64,000 nt of DNA from Parcubacteria group bacterium GW2011_GWA2_43_13. Its GTDB lineage: Bacteria > Patescibacteriota > Patescibacteriia > UBA9629 > GWA2-43-13. A model generated the notes under the pieces. The model saw nothing but the letters and a program-made list of their open reading frames with translations. It was not told where the DNA came from and ran no database searches. Shown one piece after another: positions 211 through 51,302 of the stretch (positions are counted from its first letter, which is position 1; the number at the start of each line of letters is the position of its first letter). The position numbers and the translations under genes are program-made. The stretch covers positions 436 to 64,435 of the forward strand of contig LCFM01000002.1 of assembly GCA_000999025.1 (NCBI GenBank). Reading direction: 5' to 3'.

Positions 211-1365
211 TTAATGACGATTCTTAACACGATAAATAGAAACAGTGCCGCCGCAATATTGATCAGATGGCGCAGGAGCACACATATAATTATTTGAGAA
301 CCATGCAAATCGCGCTTTACTGCTTGCATTTGATAGCACTGGTTTACACGCCGGCCCCATACAAATACCAATATGACGACTGTCCGCTTTTTCTGCAATC
401 ATGATATCTCCACACATAGCATTTGCTGTTAATATCAGATCTCCCCTCCCAGCATTTAACCCAGCTTGTACGTCTAAAACGTAATCTTTACTCCCGCGAG
501 AACGAACAATTGTATCAACATTTGCCTTATTTAAAATGTAATTCACTGACCATGCGCATGCCTTATTCCCTCCCTCCGGCCCCCCACTCGTATCTGCCCC
601 ACATGCCAATTTCGCCGCATTGCAAATATCTGCCTGAATATTATCGCTCAATGACACCTTGGTCATCACATTTGTTTGCATTGCTTGTGTCGTGCCACCA
701 CCTACATTAGCACAAGAAGGAGCTGGACCTAAACTGCCTGTCCTCCCACCTCCTCCTATAGCTTCTGCTTTTGCCTGCTCGCGAGCGATATAGGTTGAAA
801 CTTTTGTATCAATGCACGATGGCGGTGTTTCACCATCGCACAAATTATTCCATGGCAAAGAGTTAGAAAACAGCCGAGCCGTTGACTTTAACAGCGTACT
901 TTTTCTTTCCTGATCTTGTTGAGGATTATTTGTGTCTGCTGTATATTCAGGCGTTACTGCAATAATAATTGTATTCACAATAATCCATGATGATAACACA
1001 AGCATCATGCCAAAAAACGTGCGGGACATGATTTCTTTGCCTTGCTGAATTTTTTGGTCATCCCCGCGCGACATCATCCACACCATGCCACCGTACAACA
1101 ACATAATCAGTGCTCCGATTCCGACAAAACTGATCATGATTCTATATATGCCAATCGGAACCGATAAGATATCGCACATGGTGCAATTGCCACACTGCTT
1201 GCATTCTGCTGATACAAACTGAAATGTAACTCCTACTGATTCCAAACGATCAATAGTTGCAGATCCTTCTGATGTCGCGCTCACGCTTACTGGAAAGATA
1301 ACAAACACAACTCCCGCAAAAAGAGTAACCGCACCCATCCATCTCTTTAAAAAATTTCTTGACAT
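211..1365 (-). CDS. membrane-anchored exported protein: N-terminal T4SS-pilin-like (TrbC/VirB2-type) TM hairpin, Gly-rich linker, C-terminal Cys/His CHAP or NlpC/P60-like hydrolase domain
   Basis: 384-aa ORF. N-terminus has two hydrophobic helices around motif YGGMVWMMSRGDDQKIQQGKEIM, which is shared with the N-terminus of the giant ORF at 57351..63215. C-terminus has KACAWSVNY ... GDLIL ... RHIGICMG, resembling the Cys and His boxes of CHAP/NlpC-P60 peptidoglycan hydrolases. Confidence 0.5.
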   Translation of the reverse strand: MSRNFLKRWMGAVTLFAGVVFVIFPVSVSATSEGSATIDRLESVGVTFQFVSAECKQCGNCTMCDILSVPIGIYRIMISFVGIGALIMLLYGGMVWMMSRGDDQKIQQGKEIMSRTFFGMMLVLSSWIIVNTIIIAVTPEYTADTNNPQQDQERKSTLLKSTARLFSNSLPWNNLCDGETPPSCIDTKVSTYIAREQAKAEAIGGGGRTGSLGPAPSCANVGGGTTQAMQTNVMTKVSLSDNIQADICNAAKLACGADTSGGPEGGNKACAWSVNYILNKANVDTIVRSRGSKDYVLDVQAGLNAGRGDLILTANAMCGDIMIAEKADSRHIGICMGPACKPVLSNASSKARFAWFSNNYMCAPAPSDQYCGGTVSIYRVKNRH

Positions 1366-1673: not shown

Positions 1674-1783
1674 AAAAAACACCCCTACTTGGGGGCTGTT
1701 TTTTTATCCACACCAATAAGAGGTGTATAATATGTGGTTCACGCTCTTGAGACACAACCGATTCTCCTTTACTATACAAAGAT

Positions 1784-3148
1784 ATGGCTGATGGAATGGA
1801 AAAAATCCCACCGCACAATCTTGAGGCAGAACAATCTGTGCTTGGCGCTCTTTTTATTGATCCTGACGCCATTGTTCACGTTGCGGACATTGTTACAAGC
1901 GATGATTTTTATAAAGAAGTGCACCGCATTATTTTTAACGCGATTGTGGAGGTATATGAAAAGCACCTGCCTATTGATCTTTTAAATGTCAGTAACCGAC
2001 TTTTGGAGCGCAATCAGCTGGAACTCGTTGGAGGACGCGCCTATTTAAGCGAACTCACCACCATAGTCCCCACTGCAAGCAATGTGGCGAGTTATGCCAC
2101 TATTGTGCAAAAAAAAGCAACTCTGCGCCGTCTTCTTAAAGCCGCGCATGATATTACAAGTTATGGATATAATGAAGAAGATGAAACAGAGCATTTGCTT
2201 GATATGTCAGAGCAAGCGATATTTCGGGTATCGCAAAAACATCTGCATCAAAATTTTATTCCCATTACCACAATCCTGACTGAAACATTCGACCGCATTG
2301 ATGAACTTCATCGCGGAGACGGATCTCTGCGAGGCGTACCAACCGGATTCCCTGATCTTGATAATTTAATGTCCGGTTTGCAAAAATCAGATCTGGTGAT
2401 TCTTGCGGCGCGGCCATCTGTGGGAAAAACAACATTCGCGCTCGATATCGCGCGAAATGCGGCAGTTGTGTATAAATCAAAAGTAGGGATTTTTTCACTT
2501 GAAATGTCCAAAGAACAACTTGTTGACCGTTTACTCGCAACTCAAGCAGGTATTGATTTATGGAAAATGCGAACAGGCAAACTCTCGCACCAAGAAGGGT
2601 CAGATGAATTCCCGCGCATCGGGCAAGCCATGGGCGTGCTTTCCGAAGCGCCGATTTTTATTGACGACACGCCAAGCGCCAATGTCATGCAAATACGCAC
2701 AAAAGCGCGGCGCTTGCAGGCAGAACACGGGCTTGATTTTATTATCATTGATTATCTTCAGTTGATGGAATCGCGAGCCCAAAGCAAATCAAGCGACAAT
2801 CGTGTGCAGGAAATCGCGGAAATTTCACGCGGATTAAAATCAATCGCGCGCGAGTTAAACATTCCGGTACTTGCCCTGTCCCAACTCTCTCGCGCTGTTG
2901 AAATGACAAAACCCGCTATTCCAAAACTTGCACATTTGCGTGAATCTGGTTCAATTGAACAAGATGCTGATATCGTTATGTTTGTCTACCGTAAAGCTAT
3001 GGATCGTAATTATCGAGAAGAGGACTTATCTCAAGAAGAAAAACATCTCACAGAAATCCACATTGCCAAGCACCGCAACGGTCCGACCGGGGTTATCAAA
3101 CTATTCTTTGACGCAAATCATGTAACATTTAAAAGTTTAGCTAAATAA
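1784..3148 (+). CDS. dnaB: replicative DNA helicase DnaB
   Basis: 454 aa. Has the N-terminal LEAEQSVLGALF motif and Walker A GKT in ARPSVGKTTFALD. Helicase motifs and the C-terminal RecA-like fold are all present. Confidence 0.95.
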   Translation: MADGMEKIPPHNLEAEQSVLGALFIDPDAIVHVADIVTSDDFYKEVHRIIFNAIVEVYEKHLPIDLLNVSNRLLERNQLELVGGRAYLSELTTIVPTASNVASYATIVQKKATLRRLLKAAHDITSYGYNEEDETEHLLDMSEQAIFRVSQKHLHQNFIPITTILTETFDRIDELHRGDGSLRGVPTGFPDLDNLMSGLQKSDLVILAARPSVGKTTFALDIARNAAVVYKSKVGIFSLEMSKEQLVDRLLATQAGIDLWKMRTGKLSHQEGSDEFPRIGQAMGVLSEAPIFIDDTPSANVMQIRTKARRLQAEHGLDFIIIDYLQLMESRAQSKSSDNRVQEIAEISRGLKSIARELNIPVLALSQLSRAVEMTKPAIPKLAHLRESGSIEQDADIVMFVYRKAMDRNYREEDLSQEEKHLTEIHIAKHRNGPTGVIKLFFDANHVTFKSLAK

Positions 3149-7344: not shown

Positions 7345-8532
7345 TTAAGAAGATGGAGGAAAAGTAATACGCTTTGAGGCGTGATGAACGAATAAAACAA
7401 AAACACTTGCGACAAGAATAACAATAATAACCAGCCAAATCCATGCGACATTGCGCAACATCAAACCAGCAGTCCCCAAAACAAGCGCAAAAAGATAATA
7501 CACAATACTCACTCGCTTAGCGCTGAATCCCATATCAAGCAGACGCAAATGCATGTGGTTTCTATCCCCTGCAAACGGAGAACGCTTTTCTTTTACCAAT
7601 CGTTTGTAAATAACCACTCCAACATCAATAATCGCAAGCCCCATCACAACCAATGTTATTGCTATTTTTGCCTCACTTAAAATAGCAAGGGTGGCGAGCA
7701 TAAATCCTGCCCACGTACTGCCCCCCTCCCCCAAAAAAATCGAAGCAGGAGAAAAATTAAACACTAAAAACCCAAGCATCACACCCAACAAAATAATACC
7801 CAATAGAGGCGATGTTATCTGACCTAAAAACAACCCTACTATCACTAAAAATCCAGCCCCAATCGCTGTTACCCCGGCAACAAGACCATCAACCCCATCT
7901 AAAAATTTTGTTGTATACACCATGCCTAAAATCCACACAAACGTAATACTATCAGCAGGTAAAGTAAAATAATACGGAATCCCATTGATTCGTGTTATTT
8001 CAAATTTCATCTGCGCAAGTTTAATTATTTCGCTCCCCTCTAATCCATCAATAAACGGATTGGTAATAGCGGAAAGCCCGATCCCGCTTGCGATAACAAT
8101 GGCAATCGCTATGAATGGAAATAAACATTGATGCCACGGCTTGAGATTATATGTATCATCAATCAATCCCCCAATGACCAATACTAACCCTCCCAGCGTC
8201 ATGCCAATAAGATGCTTGCCAACAACTTCATGCTCTCCAATAAACGCAATTGCGATAAAAGAAACAAGAGCAAACGCAACAAAACACGCCAACCCTCCGC
8301 CAAGCGGAATGGGCGTGGTGTGATGTTTTCGTCCGCCACTCGGATGGTCAACAATACGCGCTCTCCTCATGAGCTGACGAGTGCAGTATGTTGCGCACAC
8401 AGACACAAGCAAGGCAGAAATGCCCCAGAGTATAAACATAAGGATTATGGGACTGTCGCCGAATACCATATTTGGCATAAAACCCCAAACTCCGGTAAAT
8501 TTTTTTGAAAATTTTTTCGCTAATGTATCCAC
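7345..8532 (-). CDS. glycosyltransferase family 4 (WecA/TagO/MraY-type polyprenyl-phosphate sugar-phosphate transferase)
   Basis: 395 aa, multi-TM. Motifs RIVDHPSGGRKHHTTPIPLGGGLA and LDGVDGL are diagnostic for this family. More WecA-like than MraY-like. Confidence 0.75.
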   Translation of the reverse strand: MDTLAKKFSKKFTGVWGFMPNMVFGDSPIILMFILWGISALLVSVCATYCTRQLMRRARIVDHPSGGRKHHTTPIPLGGGLACFVAFALVSFIAIAFIGEHEVVGKHLIGMTLGGLVLVIGGLIDDTYNLKPWHQCLFPFIAIAIVIASGIGLSAITNPFIDGLEGSEIIKLAQMKFEITRINGIPYYFTLPADSITFVWILGMVYTTKFLDGVDGLVAGVTAIGAGFLVIVGLFLGQITSPLLGIILLGVMLGFLVFNFSPASIFLGEGGSTWAGFMLATLAILSEAKIAITLVVMGLAIIDVGVVIYKRLVKEKRSPFAGDRNHMHLRLLDMGFSAKRVSIVYYLFALVLGTAGLMLRNVAWIWLVIIVILVASVFVLFVHHASKRITFPPSS

Positions 8533-23509: not shown

Positions 23510-23774
23510 TCTCCTAAAAAATAAAAGATGTGTTTAGAAGAATAGGTGCGGGGTTTCAATCCAGCCGTGGCGCTATATTAAATATGTTCAATCATGATAA
23601 GATACCGCATGCTTTCGATATCCTCTCATAAAGGCACATGAATAATAGATGAGAAAAATTGTCATGTTATCCACAGCAGGAAACAGTGATGATTGTACCA
23701 CACTGCGTCAAAAAAACAAGGGGATGATTGCACCCCGATCCCCCCTTATATACACATCAAGGAAAAAAGAGCAT

Positions 23775-24076
23775 TTATTGGACCGGTTCAAGATATACCC
23801 TGTCATCATCGCGATCAGGTGAATCAGACGGCATGACTGGCTCAAAGTCATCCCAACCAACCTCTTCCTGACTTTGTTTCCACACCGCAATATCGCGGTT
23901 TATCTTATCCAATAATTCCTCTTCTGTCAAGGATTGGACGTCCTGACGATACCCAATCACGCGCTCATATTCAGATAACGGCATCACCACAATCGGCGAC
24001 TCTTGGGTATCAACAATAATAACCCGATCTCCGGTGCTTCTTGCGAGTCCCAATACGCGCTCAAGATCTTTCATAC
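23775..24076 (-). CDS. small protein with a Phd/YefM-like antitoxin fold and an acidic C-terminal tail; no toxin partner
   Basis: Start at MTFCMKDLERV, with a GGGG SD 5 nt upstream. The segment RVIIVDTQESPIVVMPLSEYERVI matches the YefM core (VIITRNGKPVAVLVSLEEYE-like). Confidence 0.35.
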
Positions 24077-24270
24077 AAAAAGTCATTAACCCCTTTTGCA
24101 ATACTATAGAAAAAAACCATAGAGCGCAAGCTTTGCAAAAAGAAAAAGAGGTCAGCAGAGCCAACCCCTTTCGCGACAGAACATCCAGCATGACATCAGG
24201 AGGGTTTTCCTCCCAATGTGGGAATACCCAACTAAGAGGGTGGTATTTCATTGGCGACCCATACACAAAA

Positions 24271-24297
24271 AGACGCTCCATTGGAGCGTCTCTACAC
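24271..24297. repeat. family-A palindromic element (degenerate) just downstream of fusA
   Basis: agacgctcc-att-ggagcgtctctacac. Confidence 0.55.
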
Positions 24298-35184: not shown

Positions 35185-36669
35185 CTATCCCTCCAATCCG
35201 TTATGCGCATAAGCAAGCGCGCGGAACATCCCGCCTGCTTTCCGCAAACACTCATCATGCTCACGAGCAGGGTCAGAATCCGCAACAATCCCAGCGCCTA
35301 CTTGCCAGGATATGGAGTCCTTCGTCACCACTGCCATGCGAATCGCAATAGCGACATCAAAATGCCCGTTAGGATTTACCCAACCAACAACACCGCCGTA
35401 AGGGCCGCGACGCGTTACCTCCAATTCATCAATGATCTCCATCGCGCGCACTTTCGGAGCTCCAGAGAGCGTGCCTATGGGGAAAGTGGCACGAAATGCG
35501 TCAAACTGAGAACACGTTGATCTCATCGTGCCTTCAACCGTCGAGGAAAGATGCATCACAGTCGAGTATCGTTCAACTTCCATGAAACGCGTTACTCGAA
35601 CAGTACCCGAGACGCATACCCTGCCAAGATCGTTTCTGCTAAGATCCACAAGCATGACGTGCTCTGCTTGTTCTTTTAGATCTTGTCGAAGTTCTTGAGC
35701 AAGGTATTCATCTTCTTCTGGAGTTAATCCGCGACGCCGTGTTCCCGCAAGCGGTCGCGTGATGATATCTGCCCCTGCCACGCGGATAAGCATTTCAGGA
35801 GAAGATCCGACCAGAGCACATTCTCCGCAATTCAAGAAAAAGAGGTACGGAGAAGGATTCACGCTTCGCAACGCCCGATAGAGCTGAAACGCCGACATAG
35901 TTCGCGGGACTGACAAGCGCTGTGAAAGCACTACCTGAATCACATCGCCTGCGCTAATGTAGTCCTTTGCCCGACGCACAGAATGCTCAAACTCCGATTG
36001 AGAGACCGTTGACACAGCAGACGGAAGCATCCCATGCCCGGCGCGAACTTCACAGGTTCTCTCCTCTTGAAGAAACGAGCATGTTGTATTGATACACTCA
36101 ACCGCACTGGCATACGAACCATCAACGCCTTCTCTTAAAGGGTCAGCGAATGCGACAACCGACATGGTATGTCGCACATGGTCAAACACCACGACTGTTT
36201 TCATTGTCATGAAAAAACAGTCGGCCAACCCGAGATCATCAACCGGTGCGTTTGGCAGATGTTCGATGTATCGAACCATGTCATACCCAAAGTACCCCAC
36301 ACTCGCTCCAATAAAACGAGGCAGTGAAGGAATTGACGCGCATCGGGATGCGTTGATGAACAATTCACATTCGCGGATTGGATCCACCGCCGAGAAGGTT
36401 TGAACCAACCCAGAAGTGTTGTCATGAATCGTAACGCGATTGTCCTTTGAGGAGAACGTCCGGATGGGATCCACTCCAATGCATGAATAGCGGCCCAGCC
36501 GTTCGCCACCTTCGACTGATTCAAGAAGAAACCCGCGACGCACATCGCCACCAAGGCGGAAAAACGCCGAAACCGGAGTAATGGTATCTGCTAATATTTC
36601 ATGCACAACTGGGATTCTCACCCCGGTATGTGCCTGTGCGACTGCTCGAAAATCAGCTAACGTTTGCAC
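35185..36669 (-). CDS. trpE: anthranilate synthase component I (or PabB)
   Basis: Chorismate-binding domain (GAPKVRAMEIIDELE, RGPYGGVVGW). Start chosen at the GTG with an AAGGAG SD. The upstream T-box-like leader with a UGG-containing loop favours TrpE. GC is elevated versus flanks. Confidence 0.8.
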   Translation of the reverse strand: MQTLADFRAVAQAHTGVRIPVVHEILADTITPVSAFFRLGGDVRRGFLLESVEGGERLGRYSCIGVDPIRTFSSKDNRVTIHDNTSGLVQTFSAVDPIRECELFINASRCASIPSLPRFIGASVGYFGYDMVRYIEHLPNAPVDDLGLADCFFMTMKTVVVFDHVRHTMSVVAFADPLREGVDGSYASAVECINTTCSFLQEERTCEVRAGHGMLPSAVSTVSQSEFEHSVRRAKDYISAGDVIQVVLSQRLSVPRTMSAFQLYRALRSVNPSPYLFFLNCGECALVGSSPEMLIRVAGADIITRPLAGTRRRGLTPEEDEYLAQELRQDLKEQAEHVMLVDLSRNDLGRVCVSGTVRVTRFMEVERYSTVMHLSSTVEGTMRSTCSQFDAFRATFPIGTLSGAPKVRAMEIIDELEVTRRGPYGGVVGWVNPNGHFDVAIAIRMAVVTKDSISWQVGAGIVADSDPAREHDECLRKAGGMFRALAYAHNGLEG

Positions 36670-37085
36670 TTTCTTGCTCCTTTGCAAGATGCGCGAGTTG
36701 AGTTGTGAGAAAGAACGACGCACGAGGAGAAACAAAAAACCCCTCATCCTTATGCGTATCAAAAAATACGCAACAAGGACGAAGGGTCTTCTTTATTTTT
36801 TAACAAAAAAGAGACACTCCGCGGTGCCACCTTGGTTCCTATCAATATATATCATTGACATTGATAGGCACTTTTCGTGTACTCCTTTGCGGGATATACA
36901 ATATCCTATGGTAACGGAGGAAACCGGATTATGCTACAATCATAGCTGATTTTCGCATAACCATCTGGCCTGGTCCATCGATACCGCATAAGTGAGAAGT
37001 CCTTTCAGCCCATGAGACCTCCTCTCTTGCACTCTTGCTATGGCATCTATTCCAAGCTCTTAACGATGTTGACATTGTTAATGAA
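36670..37085 (-). ncRNA. candidate T-box riboswitch-like leader (tRNA-Trp type?) upstream of trpE
   Basis: On the minus strand: AACCAAGGTGGCACCGCGG (13/13 match to the T-box core GGUGGNACCGCGG), an F-box-like CCGUUA, a stem-III-like hairpin cctatcaat...attgatagg, an AGUA motif, and UGG in a predicted loop. The terminator/antiterminator geometry is non-canonical: a T-tract follows 8 nt after the T-box, and a larger hairpin plus T-tract lies at about 36720-36790. Confidence 0.45.
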
Positions 37086-37092
37086 CACTATA

Positions 37093-37121
37093 AGTATATA
37101 GTATCATTTCATTTTTGTCAA
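37093..37121 (-). promoter_or_regulatory. strong sigma70-like promoter TTGACA-17-TATACT driving the trpE leader
   Basis: Consensus -35, a 17-nt spacer, and a near-consensus -10. Confidence 0.6.
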
Positions 37122-37131
37122 ATGCAATCAA

Positions 37132-37175
37132 AAAAAGCAACACCCTCTCGGGGCGGTTGCGCCCGAAAGAGGGTG
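37132..37175 (-). terminator. intrinsic terminator (minus strand) ending an upstream small transcript
   Basis: caccctctttcgggcgcaaccgccccgagagggtg, then ttgcttttttt. Confidence 0.6.
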
Positions 37176-37375
37176 TGCTTAGTGACCATGGTGTACCATA
37201 TACCCTTGGTGCCTTACTCAAGAAGCGTAATGTGCCCCCCAATGATAATCGGTCTCTTGCGAGACGCGTGGATCCGCACTCACACTCCGCAGAGTATAAG
37301 TATAAAGATCGTTGTTAGGAGACGTTATAGAACACTTTTTACACTCCCCTTGTAAAGCACTTTTATTATAGCAAA
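37176..37375 (-). ncRNA. candidate ~230-nt small RNA between an extended -10 promoter (TGcTATAAT at about 37365) and the terminator at 37132..37175
   Basis: No ORF above 10 codons with an SD. Contains a GNRA-type hairpin gtctc-gcaa-gagac. Confidence 0.3.
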
Positions 37376-37497
37376 ATAGAGATTAAAAGAAAATGAATAA
37401 CCTTGCCATTGTGTGCAAAATAAAAACAGGGTTATTAAAAAAACAGAGGTTATGCGTATAACTTCCGTTCAAAGTCATTTGCATAACCCTTCTGTCT

Positions 37498-37713
37498 TCA
37501 ATTGAAGACAATCTCCGTCCCTTCGGGGTAACGCTCTACCCAATCTTTCCCTAAATGCGTCCGAACAAATTCTTCAAAGGTAACGATATCGTCACCGACG
37601 TCATTATCACCGACGTCATCGTCACCGATGTCATCGTCCTCAACGACCAAAGATGATGCTGGAGGATCGGGGAAAACAAGCGTCCTCCCTCTAACACACA
37701 CACGTACAGGCAT
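37498..37713 (-). CDS. small highly acidic protein (71 aa) with internal 15-bp tandem repeats
   Basis: Good SD (AGGAGAGGGAG 7 nt before the ATG). Encodes DDDIGDDDVGDNDVGDD from about 3.5 copies of gtcaccgacgtcatc. Has its own terminator at about 37440-37495. Confidence 0.5.
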   Translation of the reverse strand: MPVRVCVRGRTLVFPDPPASSLVVEDDDIGDDDVGDNDVGDDIVTFEEFVRTHLGKDWVERYPEGTEIVFN

Positions 37714-37887
37714 ACTCCCTCTCCTAAAAGAACGATGTTCTCCATCAAAAAATCCCGCTGTTCGCGCGGGGTCCTTGATGTGAACTGAATGATTCCGTGG
37801 CTATGCTCACCATCAAAGATCCCGCGTCATGCGAGATTTTGCATTGGTGTTAAATTGGTAAAAAAAACCAATATTCATAGCCATTGT

Positions 37888-37936
37888 GTATTTTTAATCA
37901 TATTCTCATTTTTGTCAACCATTTTTGTGTGGATAA
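37888..37936 (-). promoter_or_regulatory. minus-strand promoter (TTGACA-17-TAAAAAT) abutted upstream by a consensus DnaA box TTATCCACA
   Basis: Plus strand reads ttgtcaac-N8-tgtggataa, identical in architecture to 38486..38529. Drives ORF 37498..37713 through a leader with a terminator-like hairpin. Confidence 0.45.
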
Positions 37937-37951
37937 ACAACCTCACTCTAA

Positions 37952-37985
37952 CCCCCTCCTTTATCAAGGAGGGGGTAGGGGGCGG
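37952..37985. repeat. family-B palindrome
   Basis: ccccctcctttatcaaggaggggg. Confidence 0.55.
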
Positions 37986-38094
37986 TAAAAAAACAGGGTA
38001 AGAACGTTGTCTCACCCTTGCGCATGGAGGATCACTCAATACGGTTTGCCCTTATAAAAGAGGGATTACCTCTCCCAAGAGCGTTGGTTAAAAG

Positions 38095-38298
38095 TTACCG
38101 ATCCGACGCATTGTCTTCGACAACGATGTTGATCGTTGCTTCGGTTCCCCGAAGAACTAACCCAAAATCATTGCCGAAACAATGCCCGACATTCCGTGTC
38201 GGGCAACTGCCGTTGCAGTGCCAACACGGAATTGATCGCTCGCCAACGCCCAACATACGGGCGAGGGCGAGAATATCGTCGCGACGCCGATCTTCCAT
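38095..38298 (-). CDS. small Cys/His-rich protein (67 aa; CWHCNGSC...HC), putative metal-binding
   Basis: GC-rich. Start MEDRRRDD with an AAGGGGG SD. Lies between the promoter at 38486..38529 and the terminator at about 37990-38020. The leader carries an attenuator-like terminator (38340-38370). Confidence 0.35.
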   Translation of the reverse strand: MEDRRRDDILALARMLGVGERSIPCWHCNGSCPTRNVGHCFGNDFGLVLRGTEATINIVVEDNASDR

Positions 38299-38485
38299 TG
38301 CCACTACCCCCTTTGTTAGAAAGATTGCTTTCCCTAACAAAAACCTCGCCCGAGTAAGGCGAGGGTCAAGGTCCATGGGATTGGTTTTTTAGTATTACAC
38401 AGCACCTTTAAAACTCGCCTTATCTCTAAGGATGAGATTAATGACGACGAGTTTAATGCAATGCATGTGCATACTGAATATAAGA

Positions 38486-38529
38486 TTAAAGTACCATTAA
38501 AATTTTGTCAACGACTTATCTGTGGATAA
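38486..38529 (-). promoter_or_regulatory. minus-strand promoter (TTGACA-17/18-TAATCT) abutted by a consensus DnaA box TTATCCACA
   Basis: Plus strand reads ttgtcaac-gacttatc-tgtggataa. Confidence 0.4.
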
Positions 38530-38603
38530 CAAAAACAAAAGCGGGGATTATTCCCCGCCATTCGTGAGTTACTTGTCTTATATTCGTGTACCATCCGTGT
38601 CGA

Positions 38604-39197
38604 TTAAAACATAATATCCTCTTCTGCCCGCTTATACTGGTGAATCTCTTCCGGCCCAAACCATAAATGGATTTCATTATCCGCTTCTGCCTGCGTTTCA
38701 GAAGCATGCACAATATTTTTAATTGCTCTGCTTTCAAGATTTGCAACTGCCGGCGAATCAACGCTGAAATCGCCGCGAATAGTTCCCATTTCAGCAAACA
38801 CAGGTAAGGAATGGCCAACTAATTTGCGCACCATATCAATCGCGTGTATGCCCTGCACAACCATTGCCACAATCGGACCTGATGACAGGTATTCAAATAA
38901 AAGTTCTTTCACCTTCGTACCTATTTCCATTTTATTATCAGTCCCCTGCGCCGCAATAGGATCAATATTGTATTCAGTAAATGTCTTTAAGGTTTTTTCT
39001 CCAAGCCGCTCAACCCATGCAGGATCAGAGGGCAAATGTTTTTCAAGATGGTTACGATCCACCCATACCATTTTCATGGCAATAATTTTCAAACCACGCC
39101 GCTCAATACGACTCAAAATTTCCCCAATCAACCCACGCTTTACACCGTCCGGCTTTACAAGGACAAGCGTCATTTCTTGTTTCATTTTCTGATGCAT
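38604..39197 (-). CDS. ndk: nucleoside diphosphate kinase (long form)
   Basis: LVLVKPDGVKRGLIGEI...NIVHASE has the NDK catalytic His context. Confidence 0.8.
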   Translation of the reverse strand: MHQKMKQEMTLVLVKPDGVKRGLIGEILSRIERRGLKIIAMKMVWVDRNHLEKHLPSDPAWVERLGEKTLKTFTEYNIDPIAAQGTDNKMEIGTKVKELLFEYLSSGPIVAMVVQGIHAIDMVRKLVGHSLPVFAEMGTIRGDFSVDSPAVANLESRAIKNIVHASETQAEADNEIHLWFGPEEIHQYKRAEEDIMF

Positions 39198-47008: not shown

Positions 47009-50000
47009 CTATGAACATCCCAATGAATTGCCACAATTCAAACATTTATAACATGACCCGTTACGCACAGTGATATGACCGCACTGATCGCACGCAGGCG
47101 CGTCGCCCATCATCTCGCTCATATATTTATTCACGCCAGTGGTGTCGCCAAGCGCGGACAACGCCCCAGGCCCGTCTGCTACTGATGATTCATCATAACC
47201 AAATCCAAACGAGGTGCCTGTAGAGACGGGGTTAACCCCGTCTCTACTTTCCACAGGATGATCAATAATATCAAATTGAACATGGCGGTTTAATACTACT
47301 TCATCTTTGCGCAACATGGTTCCCGTTTGCTCCGGCATTACATGAATAAGATCAGTCCGGCCCAAATATTCCATAGCAAGGACTCGAAAAATAAAGTCAA
47401 TCACACTGGTTGCGGTTTTAATATTAGGGTGATCTGTCATGCCGTGCGGCTCGAATCGAGTAAATGAAAACGACTGGATGAGTTTTTCAAGCGGTACGCC
47501 ATACTGAAGCGCGTGAGAAATTGCAATCGCAAAACAATTCATCATACTTCGAAACGCCGCGCCTTCTTTATGCATATCAATAAAAATCTCGCCCAATGTT
47601 CCATCTTCATATTCGCCAGTCCGTAAAAAAATCTTATGCCCACCGACGCGTGATTCCACAGTGATGCCATTGCGTTTTTTAGGCAATGACCGCTTTTCCC
47701 CACGCGTAAGCGCAAGCGGAAGCGGCATGGTCCCAGTCGGGGTATACGAAGGACGATCACCAGTAGGCGCCATTGGCGTGTGAGCTTCTTGTACATCTTC
47801 TTGTTTCGCGATTTCTCCCTGGATGGAGACGCCCCAACGGGGCGTCTCTACAGGTTGTTCATTCTTCTTCTCTTCTATTTTCTGCGCATCCGATTTTGTA
47901 TTAAGAGGTTGCGAAAGTTTTGATCCATCCCGATACAAAGCAATGGATTTGACTCCCCATTCCCATGCTTTGCGGTAGATTTCAGAAATATCCTCAACAG
48001 TGGCTTCATTTGGAAGATTCACTGTTTTGGAAATTGATCCGGAAATAAACGGCTGAACCGATGCCATCATTTTCACATGCGCAATCGGCGCAATATACCG
48101 CTTGCCATTTCCGCATTTATTAGCGCAATCAAATACTGCCAAATCTTCCTCTTTCATTTCCGGCGCGCCTTCTATTGTCATTGTACCGCACACATAATAC
48201 TGGGCTTCTTTAATTTCCTGATCGCCAAATCCCAGCTCTTTCAATAAATTGAATGTTGGAGATGTATACACTGCTTCCGAAATGCCAAGTCGTTTTAATG
48301 TCTCATCTCCAAGAGAAAACCGATTAAACGCAAACGATAACTCAAACACTCCTTTTAATTGTTCTTCGATTTTTGCGATGTCATCAATAGTAAAACCCTT
48401 TGCCACAAGCGTCTCTGTATTGATATGCGGAGCGCCTTCAAGCGTCATCGCACCCACAACGTGCTTCATCATACGGTCAATCTGCAAAGGGGTATAGTTC
48501 AATGCTTCAAGTGCGGGTTGAATTGACTGATTTGCGATTTTAAAATATCCGCCACCTGCAAGTTTTTTAAACTTCACTAATGCAAAATCCGGCTCCACGC
48601 CTGTGGTATCGCAATCCATTAAAAGCCCAATCGTGCCTGTCGGCGCAATCACAGTCGTTTGTGCGTTGCGATAGCCATATTGCTCACCCCATAGCAATGC
48701 CTTATCCCATGCCTCGCGTCCGGCTTTCAGTAAATCATCAGGGCAATACTCCGGTTGAATGGCAACAGGATAAATATCCAGATGCTCATACTCTTCGCGC
48801 GGCACATTGTATGCGGCGCGACGATGGTTCCGTATAACTCGCAACATATCATTTTTATTCAACTCATACTTTGGGAATGAACCAAGAAAACTCGCCATCT
48901 CAGCACTTGTGGCATAAGATTCGCCAGTCAAAATCGCAGTCAAAGCTCCTGCCACGCCCCGTGCTTTATCAGTATCATACGGAATACCAGAAAGCATAAG
49001 CATTGTTCCAAGGTTCGCGTACCCAAGCCCTAAAGTGCGATACGCGTATGATCCTTCGGCAATCTCCTTGCTCGGATACTGCGCCATCAATACACTAATC
49101 TCCAGCACGACCGTCCACATCCGTATCGCATGTTTGTATCCTTCGATATCAAACTTGCGGGTTGTGTAATCGTAAAATTTCACCAAATTGATAGACGCGA
49201 GATTACACGCAGTATCATCCAAAAACATATATTCACTGCATGGATTTGACGCGCGAATGCGACCTGACTGCGGACAGGTATGCCATTCGTTAATCGTATC
49301 ATCGTACTGTACCCCAGGATCTGCGCACGCCCATGCGGCATAACATACCTTCTGCCACATATCTTGCGATTTCACTGTTTTATAAGGTTTCCCGTCAATG
49401 CGGCGAATAAGATTCCAATCGCCATTTGCGTCAATCATGCGCATGAACGTGTGTGGCACACGAACCGAATTATTGGAATTCTGGCCAGATACGGTTGTGT
49501 AGGCCTCGCCTTCAAAATGAGAATCATATCCCGCCGCAATCAAAGCGGCTACTTTTTTCTCTTCTTTTACTTTCCAATTGATAAATTCCTCAATTTCCGG
49601 ATGATCAAGATTCAAACACACCATTTTCGCCGCGCGCCGGGTTGTGCCACCTGATTTGATTGCGCCTGCCGCTCGATCGCCAATCTTTAAAAATGACATC
49701 AGTCCGGATGATGATCCTCCTCCTGATAATGTTTCCCCTACTCCTCTGATATTAGAAAAATTCGTTCCTGTGCCTGACCCGTACTTAAACAGTCGCGACT
49801 CCCTCATCCATAAATCCATAATACCGCCCGGATTCACCAAGTCATCTGTTACAGATAAAATAAAACACGCATGCGGTTGCGGATGCGTATACGCATCCTC
49901 TGACGGTCGTACTTCTCCTGTTTCAGGATCAGGATAATAATGGCCTTGCGCAGGTCCGGTAATACCGTATGCCCACTGGAGTCCGGTATTAAACCATTGC

Positions 50001-50536
50001 GGAGAATTCGGAGCGGCGTACTGACGTATCAGCATAAACGCAAGCTCATCTTCAAAAATTTGCGCATCCTCTGCTGACGCAAAATAGCCGTATTTTTCTC
50101 CCCAATACCTCCAGCATCCTGCAAGACGCGCAACCACCTGGCGCGCGCTTTTCTCCGGCCCCAATACAGACGATCCGTCTTTATCTAATAGGGGATTTCC
50201 ATAGTGATCGTATTGCGGCACTCCTGCTTTACGAAAATATTTTGATACCATAATATCTCCTGCCACTTGAGTCCATTCAGCAGGGATTTCAGCATCCTTC
50301 ATTTCAAACACAACAGATCCGTCAGGATTCGTTATGCGACTTGTTCTTTTTTCGTAGACAACCTCATCTAAAGGATTGCTACCCGGATGAGTAAATCTGC
50401 GAGTAAATCGCATGCCCTTTTCTTTTAATAAATCAGGCACTGCGTATGATGGAATGGTTACTTTTGAGTAATAACCATTCAGCCGCTCAACTTCATGAGC
50501 GACCTTTGAAGAAGGGGAAGAGGATGGGGAGGCCAT
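47009..50536 (-). CDS. nrdJ: class II (adenosylcobalamin-dependent) ribonucleotide reductase NrdJ, 1175 aa
   Basis: RNR 10-strand barrel motifs (NPCSEY, thiyl-radical Cys region) and the class II C-terminal Zn-ribbon CDQCGH...CYKCLNCGN. Two family-A palindromes lie in-frame in its linker regions. Confidence 0.9.
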   Translation of the reverse strand: MASPSSSPSSKVAHEVERLNGYYSKVTIPSYAVPDLLKEKGMRFTRRFTHPGSNPLDEVVYEKRTSRITNPDGSVVFEMKDAEIPAEWTQVAGDIMVSKYFRKAGVPQYDHYGNPLLDKDGSSVLGPEKSARQVVARLAGCWRYWGEKYGYFASAEDAQIFEDELAFMLIRQYAAPNSPQWFNTGLQWAYGITGPAQGHYYPDPETGEVRPSEDAYTHPQPHACFILSVTDDLVNPGGIMDLWMRESRLFKYGSGTGTNFSNIRGVGETLSGGGSSSGLMSFLKIGDRAAGAIKSGGTTRRAAKMVCLNLDHPEIEEFINWKVKEEKKVAALIAAGYDSHFEGEAYTTVSGQNSNNSVRVPHTFMRMIDANGDWNLIRRIDGKPYKTVKSQDMWQKVCYAAWACADPGVQYDDTINEWHTCPQSGRIRASNPCSEYMFLDDTACNLASINLVKFYDYTTRKFDIEGYKHAIRMWTVVLEISVLMAQYPSKEIAEGSYAYRTLGLGYANLGTMLMLSGIPYDTDKARGVAGALTAILTGESYATSAEMASFLGSFPKYELNKNDMLRVIRNHRRAAYNVPREEYEHLDIYPVAIQPEYCPDDLLKAGREAWDKALLWGEQYGYRNAQTTVIAPTGTIGLLMDCDTTGVEPDFALVKFKKLAGGGYFKIANQSIQPALEALNYTPLQIDRMMKHVVGAMTLEGAPHINTETLVAKGFTIDDIAKIEEQLKGVFELSFAFNRFSLGDETLKRLGISEAVYTSPTFNLLKELGFGDQEIKEAQYYVCGTMTIEGAPEMKEEDLAVFDCANKCGNGKRYIAPIAHVKMMASVQPFISGSISKTVNLPNEATVEDISEIYRKAWEWGVKSIALYRDGSKLSQPLNTKSDAQKIEEKKNEQPVETPRWGVSIQGEIAKQEDVQEAHTPMAPTGDRPSYTPTGTMPLPLALTRGEKRSLPKKRNGITVESRVGGHKIFLRTGEYEDGTLGEIFIDMHKEGAAFRSMMNCFAIAISHALQYGVPLEKLIQSFSFTRFEPHGMTDHPNIKTATSVIDFIFRVLAMEYLGRTDLIHVMPEQTGTMLRKDEVVLNRHVQFDIIDHPVESRDGVNPVSTGTSFGFGYDESSVADGPGALSALGDTTGVNKYMSEMMGDAPACDQCGHITVRNGSCYKCLNCGNSLGCS
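47220..47247. repeat. family-A palindrome embedded in-frame in nrdJ (encodes VESRDGVNPVST)
   Basis: gtagagacggggttaaccccgtctctac, a perfect 12-bp stem. Confidence 0.8.
47825..47852. repeat. family-A palindrome embedded in-frame in nrdJ (encodes PVETPRWGVS)
   Basis: ggagacgcccc-aac-ggggcgtctctac. Confidence 0.8.
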
Positions 50537-50585
50537 ATATTTGTGTTAATGACAAAAAACAAATAACAAAGAAATGATAGAGAGA

Positions 50586-51146
50586 TTATTGGTTTTTTAT
50601 TATTGGTTTTCTGTTATTAACTATTGGGGGGTTCCCACCAAAGGCGCTGTGCCCGCCTCTGGCTGGGGGTCCGCCTTTGGCAGAGTTTTTTGTCATCCGA
50701 GGCATCAATGCGTCTACTTCCTCTTTAAATGTTTCAACATCTGAAAACTGGCGATACACAGAAGCAAATCTGATATAGGCGACCTTATCAAATTTTTTCA
50801 ACTGCCGCATAACAATATCACCAATAGCATCGCTTGGTAACTCTTGCTGGCGCTTTAATTGGATATCGCGCTCAATCGTATGGACTAACGCAGATATATC
50901 TTCTTGGGTGTATGGCCGTTTGTATAACGCGCGCTTTAACCCTGCCTGAAGTTTATCGCGCGAATACGGTTCCCTGCGACCATCGCGCTTTATCACAGCA
51001 AGTCCTAATATTTCGATTTCCTCAACTGTAGAAAAACGGAACGCGCATTTTGTGCATTCACGTCTCCTCCGCACGGTTAATCCGTCAGATGAAACACGAG
51101 AGTCAAGCACGCGAGTTTCTTGATGATGGCACCCAGGACATTGCAT
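50586..51146 (-). CDS. nrdR: transcriptional repressor NrdR with a repeat-derived C-terminal tail
   Basis: Starts MQCPGCHHQETRVLDSR (zinc ribbon) and has an ATP-cone. The tail TKNSAKGGPPARGGHSAFGG... is encoded by the repeat at 50632..50694. Confidence 0.9.
   Translation of the reverse strand: MQCPGCHHQETRVLDSRVSSDGLTVRRRRECTKCAFRFSTVEEIEILGLAVIKRDGRREPYSRDKLQAGLKRALYKRPYTQEDISALVHTIERDIQLKRQQELPSDAIGDIVMRQLKKFDKVAYIRFASVYRQFSDVETFKEEVDALMPRMTKNSAKGGPPARGGHSAFGGNPPIVNNRKPIIKNQ
50632..50694. repeat. family-D repeat at the 3' end of nrdR
   Basis: About 85% identical to 18062..18125. Confidence 0.75.
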
Positions 51147-51260
51147 ACATGTGTATACTCCTCCCCCTCCTTTCAATACATAAAACAGAGGGTTTTTTCA
51201 TTATACTCCTTTCACAAAGCGTCGCACAATTAACAATATATAGTAGTAGTAATAATCAGT

Positions 51261-51302
51261 ATACCACAATATGTGGTATCAACGAAGAATCTCTGTGGAT
51301 AA
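51261..51302 (-). promoter_or_regulatory. nrdR upstream region: 19-bp near-perfect palindrome ATACCACAATATGTGGTAT (NrdR-box-like) plus a consensus DnaA box TGTGGATAA 15 bp away
   Basis: Palindrome at 51261..51279. DnaA box at 51294..51302, next to a TTGATA -35-like hexamer on the minus strand. Confidence 0.4.

Follow-up and report, generated by a model that had tools for sequence, protein, structure and literature searches.

Exact DnaA-box words at promoters and paralogous attenuator-like leaders in a Candidatus Jacksonbacteria genome: a candidate small DnaA regulon

We analyzed a stretch of 64,000 nucleotides (nt) from Parcubacteria group bacterium GW2011_GWA2_43_13 (contig LCFM01000002.1, positions 436 to 64,435; the whole stretch is called the window below) for copies of the DnaA-box consensus TTATCCACA and for the promoters that accompany them. 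Five exact, single boxes were found, at dnaB, in the tuf leader, in front of nrdR-nrdJ and in front of two small transcription units, A and B, that lie between ndk and trpE. Their number and placement suggest that a small DnaA regulon comprising the helicase, ribonucleotide reductase (RNR) and other genes is likely. The fuller proposal is that the TTATCCACA words would be DnaA operators, that the five single boxes would form a small regulon (dnaB, nrdR-nrdJ, the tuf leader, units A and B), and that an attenuator would add a second layer of control; this we hold with about even confidence.

The source organism is an uncultured groundwater bacterium, Candidatus Jacksonbacteria, of the Candidate Phyla Radiation (CPR), and many metagenome assemblies contain the window DNA at 99.7-100% identity. 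Most genes of the window lie on the minus strand; the window genes include ribosomal-protein operons, fusA/tuf, ftsA/ftsZ, nrdR-nrdJ, ndk, trpEG and lysS, and also dnaB, which encodes the replicative helicase. With 19 kb of flanking sequence added, 83 kb of this genome was examined. L-numbers (L012, L180 and so on) denote fetched loci of related Patescibacteria, of which L012 and L180 represent sister species.

Exact DnaA-box words and the promoters beside them

The exact word TTATCCACA occurs five times in the window against 0.50 expected, a count that none of 100 dinucleotide shuffles reached. One-mismatch variants were at chance level (22 observed, 17 expected), so the excess is confined to the perfect word; boxes of the relaxed consensus, TTWTNCACA, were as a class near chance as well (14 versus 8.4). 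No further exact copy was found in the 19 kb that flank the window in this genome. All five boxes fall in non-coding DNA, which makes up about 13% of the window (P ~4e-5), and promoter elements lie 5-12 nt from the box at four of the five sites. Beyond the 9-mer itself, promoter elements are the only feature common to all five. The same preference was seen in the other Patescibacteria loci (1.23 Mb), where non-coding DNA makes up only 11.7% of the sequence but contains 12 of the 22 exact boxes (P ~1e-6). The boxes in the window are as follows.

1704..1712, plus strand: DnaA box between tRNA-Lys and dnaB (1784-3148), overlapping the -35 position of TATAAT (1726-1731) and 35 nt upstream of TTGAGA-17-TACTAT
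23667..23675, plus strand: DnaA box in the tuf leader/promoter region, inverted relative to tuf, at about +15 from the extended -10 TGgTACAAT or over the -35 of a weaker candidate
37928..37936, minus strand: exact DnaA box of unit B, 9 nt upstream of the -35
38521..38529, minus strand: exact DnaA box of unit A, 9 nt upstream of the -35
51294..51302, minus strand: exact DnaA box upstream of nrdR-nrdJ, at about -51 to -43 from the predicted start

A first-pass annotation of this DNA had reported three copies, all on the minus strand. Those three (37928-37936, 38521-38529 and 51294-51302) lie exactly where it placed them, but the total was too low, since the two plus-strand copies at 1704-1712 and 23667-23675 had been missed. 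Its description of a box, 8 nt and then gTTGACAaaa at 37928 and 38521 was borne out: after the box come 9 nt (8 with the g before TTGACA counted) and then TTGACAAAA. Given that the box lies 9 bp upstream of a strong -35 in units A and B, centred at about -49, bound DnaA would modulate recruitment of RNA polymerase, in one direction or the other.

The nrdR-nrdJ promoter carries a further set of putative operators, and its elements are listed here with the genes behind them.

51232..51279, minus strand: nrdR promoter, with the extended -10 TGgTATACT (51258-51266) overlapped by NrdR box 1 (51261-51279), and NrdR box 2 at 51232-51244
47009..51146, minus strand: nrdR (50586-51146) and the class II ribonucleotide reductase gene nrdJ (47009-50536), identified with Pfam

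The Pfam domains are Zn_ribbon_NrdR and ATP-cone for nrdR, and Ribonuc_red_2_N and Ribonuc_red_lgC for nrdJ. The 19-nt palindrome that the annotation had noticed beside the nrdR box does exist, at 51261-51279, and lies over the promoter. A second NrdR-like box, NrdR box 2, reads ACTATATATTGTT, and the two box centres are 32 bp apart. We took tandem NrdR boxes to be palindromes of about 16 bp spaced about 31-32 bp apart and applied this consensus and spacing to the promoter; the consensus and the tandem spacing were reportedly described by Rodionov and Gelfand in 2005. With its two putative NrdR boxes and an nrdR gene, the promoter fits the pattern of an NrdR-repressed nrd promoter. The box was also said to lie 11 nt upstream of a TTGATA acting as -35. 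The distance is right, but TTGATA is not credible as a -35, because it lies 13 nt from TATACT and no canonical -35/-10 pair emerged from the scan; the extended -10 TGgTATACT is the better reading of this promoter. Among other CPR lineages, exact boxes were found in 3 of 73 regions upstream of nrdR against about 0.3 expected (L107/L163/L125, which form one clade, and L161). In that one clade (L107, 2220; L163, 25; L125, 12) the exact TTATCCACA is conserved at or just past the 3' end of ftsZ, 60-130 nt upstream of the TTGACA/NrdR-box promoter of nrdR.

At dnaB there are two candidate promoters, which leaves the position of the box relative to the real promoter ambiguous. The gene has no Shine-Dalgarno sequence, and TTGAGA-17-TACTAT would put the transcription start within 0-2 nt of the ATG at 1784 (1747-1786, plus strand), which suggests that this organism may use leaderless translation. 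Near the tuf box, a 168-amino-acid (aa) open reading frame (ORF) lies between fusA and tuf (23775-24281, minus strand) and gives a weak, below-cut-off match to Phd/YefM antitoxins (E 2.9e-4). Interruption of the str operon by such an ORF is unusual; the tuf promoter and its DnaA box come just after.

Units A and B and the neighbouring RNA elements

The ndk-trpE interval spans 1.85 kb of the minus strand and contains four transcription units: A, B, C and a T-box leader. Units A and B are paralogous and lie inside a genus-specific insertion between ndk and T-box-trpEG/lysS. Both show the same order of a DnaA box, a promoter, an upstream ORF (uORF) of 23-25 codons, a terminator/antiterminator leader, a small ORF with a Shine-Dalgarno sequence and a closing terminator. 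Apart from the boxes, already given, their parts are these.

38483..38511, minus strand: unit A promoter, TTGACA (38506-38511), 17 nt, TAATCT (38483-38488), assigned by analogy with the T-box promoter and by conservation in three species
38395..38472, minus strand: uORF A, 25 codons, MHMHCIKLVVINLILRDKASFKGAV, the 3' part of which is the antiterminator strand GGCGAGUUUU; AUG about 3-5 nt from the predicted transcription start
38335..38364, minus strand: predicted intrinsic terminator of leader A, CCTCGCC-TTACT-CGGGCGAGG plus T-tract (the terminator itself also given as 38364-38344)
38095..38298, minus strand: 67-aa Cys/His-rich ORF, an orphan, with Shine-Dalgarno AAGGGGG
37995..38018, minus strand: terminator closing unit A
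37890..37918, minus strand: unit B promoter, TTGACA, 17 nt, AAAAAT, from the promoter scan (10/12 matches)
37813..37884, minus strand: uORF B, 23 codons, MAMNIGFFYQFNTNAKSRMTRDL, with its stop inside the antiterminator strand GCGGGAUCUUUGAUGG; AUG at the predicted transcription start
37745..37770, minus strand: predicted intrinsic terminator of leader B, 3' arm GCGGGAUUUUUUGAUGG (the terminator itself also given as 37770-37754)
37498..37713, minus strand: 71-aa acidic ORF, an orphan, with Shine-Dalgarno AGGAGAGGGAG
37430..37497, minus strand: terminator closing unit B, GGTTATGC...GCATAACC plus T-tract (inverted repeats I1 and I17)

The unit A promoter is 79% identical to the adjacent T-box promoter (repeat D2); this likeness, together with conservation in three species, supports TAATCT as its -10. 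Between units A and B, the 27-nt block of box and -35 is 85% identical (repeat D3). The complete A-B-C block was found only in the window species and in L012/L179, with unit A alone also in L180; NDK identity to the window species is 86% for L012/L179, 83% for L177 and 78% for L180. Across the three species, unit A retains the box, the -35, the -10, the uORF frame and the attenuator. In L012 the orthologous box is TTTTCCACA and in L180 it is TTGTCCACA, each 7 nt from the -35, and the region upstream of unit A has diverged save for the blocks GTTnTCCACA, TTGAC and TTTAAT (alignment A6). These blocks evidently amount to a phylogenetic footprint of a protein-binding site.

Elsewhere the interval is built differently. 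Most relatives (NDK 68-76% identical) have convergent lysS immediately after ndk, and no exact box stands next to ndk in relatives whose NDK is at least 62% identical. The ndk-lysS gap (L013-L036, L061, L069) is a hot spot for small unrelated insertions, orphan ORFs and toxin-antitoxin genes among them, and it is there that the A-B-C block sits. In the more distant L040, two exact boxes 15 bp apart lie just after ndk (7725-7748, minus strand), and L044 carries true double boxes (500-700, minus strand), TTATCCCCA-3 bp-TTATCCACA and TTATCCCCA-2 bp-TTATCCACA, 158 bp apart. The L044 double boxes and the L040 pair may possibly be oriC, dnaA-promoter or titration sites. A layout of box, 7 or 9 nt and -35 also occurs in L039 and L037, upstream of ftsZ in the latter. 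In L039 (14400-14531, minus strand), TTATCCACA-9 nt-TTGACA-17-TATAAT is placed to drive a transcript consisting of a hairpin and an intrinsic terminator, about 75 nt long, which is a candidate DnaA-controlled small RNA.

To describe the leaders we compared five of them: winA and winB (window units A and B), L012A, L012B and L180 (A-type). A uORF of 23-26 codons is present in all five, its AUG lying within 0-5 nt of the transcription start that the -10 predicts; in the relatives it has 25 codons in the A-type leader of L012, 26 in L180 and 25 in the L012 counterpart of unit B. The unit A leader is about 135 nt long and ends in its terminator. The three A-type leaders share an identical frame around GGCGAGUUUU, reading G[CU]G AGU UUU, four codons and a stop, while those four codons and the stops themselves differ. 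In leader B the 3' arm of the terminator, GCGGGAUUUUUUGAUGG, nearly repeats the uORF tail GCGGGAUCUUUGAUGG (repeat D7). Complementarity between the uORF tail and the terminator 5' arm gives predicted duplexes of -15.6 to -20.9 kcal/mol, and in four of the five leaders 0-2 of 500 shuffles were as good (leader A, -18.1 kcal/mol and 2/500; leader B, -20.9 kcal/mol and 0/500). Three of four leaders showed the antiterminator when folded to minimum free energy, either truncated or at full length; for leader B it was the truncated fold. Candidate regulatory codons are the Ile/Leu/Val-rich KLVVINLIL, KLFIINKLV and YIILVLKKLVL in the A-type leaders and FFYQF in winB, although the runs are weak. Only 45 nt (unit A) and 40 nt (unit B) separate the leader terminator from the start of the small ORF; since this leaves no space for a promoter, the small ORFs are expressible by read-through only.

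In anatomy, the leaders match classical leader-peptide attenuation and also the leaderless-uORF type, and we infer that a second layer of control would operate by uORF-coupled attenuation. In this scheme, the transcript would open with a nearly leaderless uORF of 23-25 codons. A ribosome that reached the uORF stop would cover the antiterminator strand, so that the terminator would form and transcription would end, whereas a ribosome stalled earlier, at the Ile/Leu/Val-rich codons in A-type leaders or at FFYQF in B, would free that strand. The freed strand would form the antiterminator and transcription would reach the small ORF.

Searches for relatives of these leaders gave little. Rfam 15 contains no match for leaders A and B at the gathering threshold, and in 36600-38700, the T-box apart, only chance-level matches appeared at E values up to 10. 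One of these, to 'Trp_leader' (19.6 bits, E 0.83), was set aside as merely reflecting the terminator/antiterminator. No good single consensus structure for A and B was obtained: RNAalifold on four sequences gave a poor one, and the five 3' halves aligned out of register. When nhmmer profiles of the leaders and unit C were run over 1.47 Mb of fetched loci, they matched only the window species, L012/L179 and L180. Population variation was equally sparse: across 11 metagenomic copies of 1.95 kb there were only two single-nucleotide polymorphisms, 38343 (T>G) and 38333 (G>T), both located within the leader A terminator's T-tract or immediately beyond it, and with only two in the region selection cannot be read from them.

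The ORFs behind the leaders behave quite differently from the leaders themselves. The first-pass annotation had proposed them as novel small proteins, possibly DNA mimics, belonging to the regulon. Both are present at the coordinates it gave, but they have no homologues, and sister species carry other ORFs in their place. In a word-indexed search of 5.8 billion clustered proteins each matched only itself; an exhaustive phmmer search of 1.84 billion representatives with the 67-aa ORF returned itself and two spurious repeat proteins; Pfam has no family for either; and tblastn of both against 80 related loci gave no matches. Public records annotate the 71-aa ORF as a hypothetical protein in a metagenome-assembled genome of Candidatus Jacksonbacteria (GCA_001818055.1, MHJP01000030) from the Rifle aquifer study. 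Its DD(I/V)GD acidic tract is encoded by a 15-bp tandem repeat (three overlapping 30-nt copies, 37583-37642, repeat D1). Behind the same leaders the sister species carry ORFs of 45, 90 and 64 aa (L012) and 60 aa (L180), all of them acidic or Cys-rich and with good Shine-Dalgarno sequences. No pairwise or three-way comparison between these and the window ORFs was significant, the best being a marginal Cys motif shared by the 67-aa ORF and an L012 ORF (E 0.011). Conservation in relatives, the check that the annotation itself had named, thus went against the small proteins. Because sister species carry unrelated ORFs there, the conserved part is the box, the promoter and the uORF/attenuator leader, not the ORFs. 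The small acidic and Cys-rich ORFs appear to be fast-evolving, lineage-specific cargo, and they should not be passed on in annotation as a protein family or as 'DNA mimics'.

Downstream of unit B, unit C encodes a structured RNA of 230 nt (37130-37360, minus strand; L012 8920-9158), with an extended -10 promoter, TGcTATAAT, at 37365-37373 and a terminator at 37141-37155. It folds much better than shuffled sequences (z -7.1 and -5.3), and the window and L012 versions are 78% identical, with 59 predicted pairs, none of them broken, and nine compensatory double changes. No Rfam family matched unit C, and copies of it were found in the window species and L012/L179 only. At 37412-37420 (minus strand), some 40 nt upstream of its -10, there is a DnaA box of the relaxed consensus, TTTTGCACA. 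The last element of the interval is the T-box leader before trpE-trpG (36772-37063, minus strand), with the promoter TTGACA-17-TATACT at 37093-37121. It scores 75 bits (E 6.5e-16) and the Rfam gathering score is 93; because it falls below that threshold, a standard scan misses it. From the cmscan alignment we infer that its specifier reads UGG (Trp).

What seems new here is the two mini-operons, paralogous to each other, with their conserved short uORF and predicted attenuator control, together with the neighbouring structured RNA, all of narrow distribution. The DnaA-regulon reading is reasonable and ordinary, in that it is a known type of regulation.

Alternatives to DnaA control and to ribosome-sensing leaders

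A number of observations weigh against DnaA operators with a uORF attenuator behind them. All five boxes are single: inspection of their flanks revealed no second box of at least 6/9 at 2-3 bp, the best neighbour being TAATACGCG (5/9), 3 bp upstream of the exact box at nrdR. Boxes A and B are paralogous copies and therefore not independent of one another. The orthologous unit A boxes vary at position 3, the G of L180 falls outside TTWTNCACA, and the spacing in both is 7 rather than 9. The unit B counterpart in L012 has no box; in L177 the 200 nt beside ndk contain different sequence and no such unit; and the distant relatives checked have no box at dnaB or tuf. Neither a dnaA gene nor oriC was found in the 83 kb examined. 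To our knowledge, there is no experimental work on gene regulation in CPR bacteria, and in particular none on DNA binding by a CPR DnaA. In Escherichia coli, 13 of 32 single consensus boxes were bound in vivo, and pairs 2-3 bp apart were preferred (PMC11317965); in Bacillus subtilis, the regions best bound by DnaA in vitro and in vivo contain more boxes than other bound regions (PMC4447404). On the side of the leaders, L012B has a weak duplex (34/500 shuffles as good) and no clear run of regulatory codons.

Helicase and RNR genes, on the other hand, have been established or proposed as targets of DnaA in E. coli, B. subtilis and Caulobacter (PMC8203912), and this expectation argues against the idea that some other DNA-binding protein recognizes GTTnTCCACA and resembles DnaA in its site by coincidence. 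We consider that idea quite unlikely. It would account for the A, T or G seen at position 3 of the orthologous unit A sites next to an invariant TCCACA, and for single boxes lacking the pairing that E. coli DnaA prefers (PMC11317965), but all five window sites match the full 9-mer with one-mismatch variants at chance, and the double boxes TTATCCCCA-N2/3-TTATCCACA of the related L044 are what a true DnaA system would have. It is unlikely, too, that the boxes bind DnaA mainly to titrate or position the initiator, as origin-proximal clusters or datA do, and so serve replication control and not the adjacent genes. The window is indeed origin-proximal-like in gene content (dnaB, recR, ribosomal protein operons, tuf/fusA), and origin-proximal DnaA-box clusters modulate initiation in B. 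subtilis (PMC3245932). The boxes, however, are scattered singly over 50 kb, and each keeps a short, fixed distance to a promoter, which titration alone would not need. Moreover, GC skew is negative all through the window, so no origin lies within it. A replication origin in the window had been considered as a candidate in its own right and was rejected, given the monotonic cumulative GC skew, the lack of dnaA within 83 kb and the unclustered boxes. That the 9-mers are functionless, either chance matches or passengers of the unit A/B duplication, strikes us as very unlikely. Boxes A and B do lie in the duplicated 27-nt block (repeat D3), the L012 unit B lacks its box and most relatives have none near ndk, but the observed excess, all of it intergenic, is hard to attribute to chance. 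Between units A and B, only 2 of the 9 spacer positions are identical while box and -35 are intact, and the unit A box is kept in three species.

The second layer has a serious alternative in a ligand- or protein-sensing attenuator, because the uORFs have no Shine-Dalgarno sequence in any of the leaders, show no third-position bias (winA and L012A differ at 10 first, 9 second and 13 third codon positions, by manual count on alignment A4) and have start and stop regions that pair in predicted P1 helices. On this account the leaders would not sense ribosomes but would act as attenuators in the manner of riboswitches or by binding a protein, or else would be small RNAs in their own right; a conserved UAUGC/GCAUA helix would have given rise to the uORFs as a by-product. 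The stability of the leader folds relative to shuffles (z -4.7 and -4.5) speaks for this as well; we nevertheless regard it as doubtful, given that the P1 register differs between winA and L012A, that uORF length, frame and the position of the stop relative to the antiterminator strand are kept in three species despite sequence divergence, and that L180 retains a 26-codon ORF even though its internal hairpins are rearranged. The lack of an Rfam family match for the leaders also counts against it.

The proposal of a small DnaA regulon, already made in the first-pass annotation, thus keeps its core of non-random, promoter-linked 9-mers, for which DnaA operators are the best explanation, and is strengthened by the dnaB box; novel conserved small proteins or DNA mimics are not supported as its members, and the singleness of every box tells against it. 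If it is true, a DnaA regulon with helicase and RNR would extend the coupling of initiation to deoxynucleoside triphosphate (dNTP) supply and replisome genes to reduced CPR symbionts. The leaders, if translation-coupled, would represent leader-peptide attenuation, possibly leaderless, in an organism largely without amino-acid biosynthesis. A more speculative idea, to which we give little credence, joins the two layers: units A and B would be a genus-specific two-input switch in which DnaA at about -49 reports replication status and a leaderless attenuator with an Ile/Leu/Val- or Phe/Tyr-rich uORF reports aminoacyl-tRNA or translation status. The switch would gate the fast-evolving mini-proteins, acidic and Cys-rich, and these would in turn act on replication or growth, as a CPR counterpart of the DnaA-to-Sda checkpoint. 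Units A and B share their accessory island with the adjoining 230-nt structured RNA, which had not been described before.

Relation to known DnaA targets and attenuators

A full-text literature search returned no paper combining 'DnaA box' with 'Patescibacteria', and comparison is therefore with other bacteria. DnaA targets include nrdAB in E. coli, and dnaB and RNR are predicted targets in Caulobacter (PMC8203912); nrdA and nrdD of E. coli were confirmed by chromatin immunoprecipitation sequencing (PMC11317965). As at E. coli nrdAB, a DnaA box stands just upstream of the promoter of an RNR operon with tandem NrdR operators, an arrangement that would couple dNTP supply to initiator status (PMC8203912, PMC11317965). 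Unlike nrdAB, the site in the window has one strong box with a 5/9 neighbour 3 bp away instead of a cooperative pair or triple, the reductase is the class II nrdJ, nrdR comes first in the operon and the host is a CPR bacterium, in which the arrangement is known from sequence. The box before the replicative helicase gene resembles the predicted regulon of Caulobacter crescentus (dnaB helicase, dnaQ, RNR; PMC8203912), although the likeness is one of sequence only and the box position at the dnaB promoter is ambiguous.

In B. subtilis, the small-protein gene sda is a direct DnaA target, and like this small checkpoint protein the ORFs of units A and B are very small and lie behind a DnaA-box promoter (PMC8203912). 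They differ in having no sequence similarity to Sda, a single box, an attenuator leader in between and no conservation even in sister species. DnaA boxes outside oriC are also familiar from the origin-proximal clusters of B. subtilis and from datA and DARS of E. coli (PMC3245932, PMC11317965), but those are clusters or precise pairs, in contrast to the isolated boxes described here, each tied to a promoter.

The leaders differ from known attenuators in preceding orphan small ORFs instead of biosynthetic operons, in their weak or absent codon runs (L012B), in having predicted uORFs and in their restriction to three species. Even so, they share with the trpL, leuL, ilvL and pheL attenuators a leader ORF, a terminator before the regulated gene and mutually exclusive pairing of the uORF 3' part and the terminator 5' arm. 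Leaderless uORF attenuators have been described in mycobacteria (bioRxiv 10.1101/834739), and the predicted uORFs of units A and B resemble these Cys-uORF attenuators in having the start codon at or beside the 5' end of the transcript.

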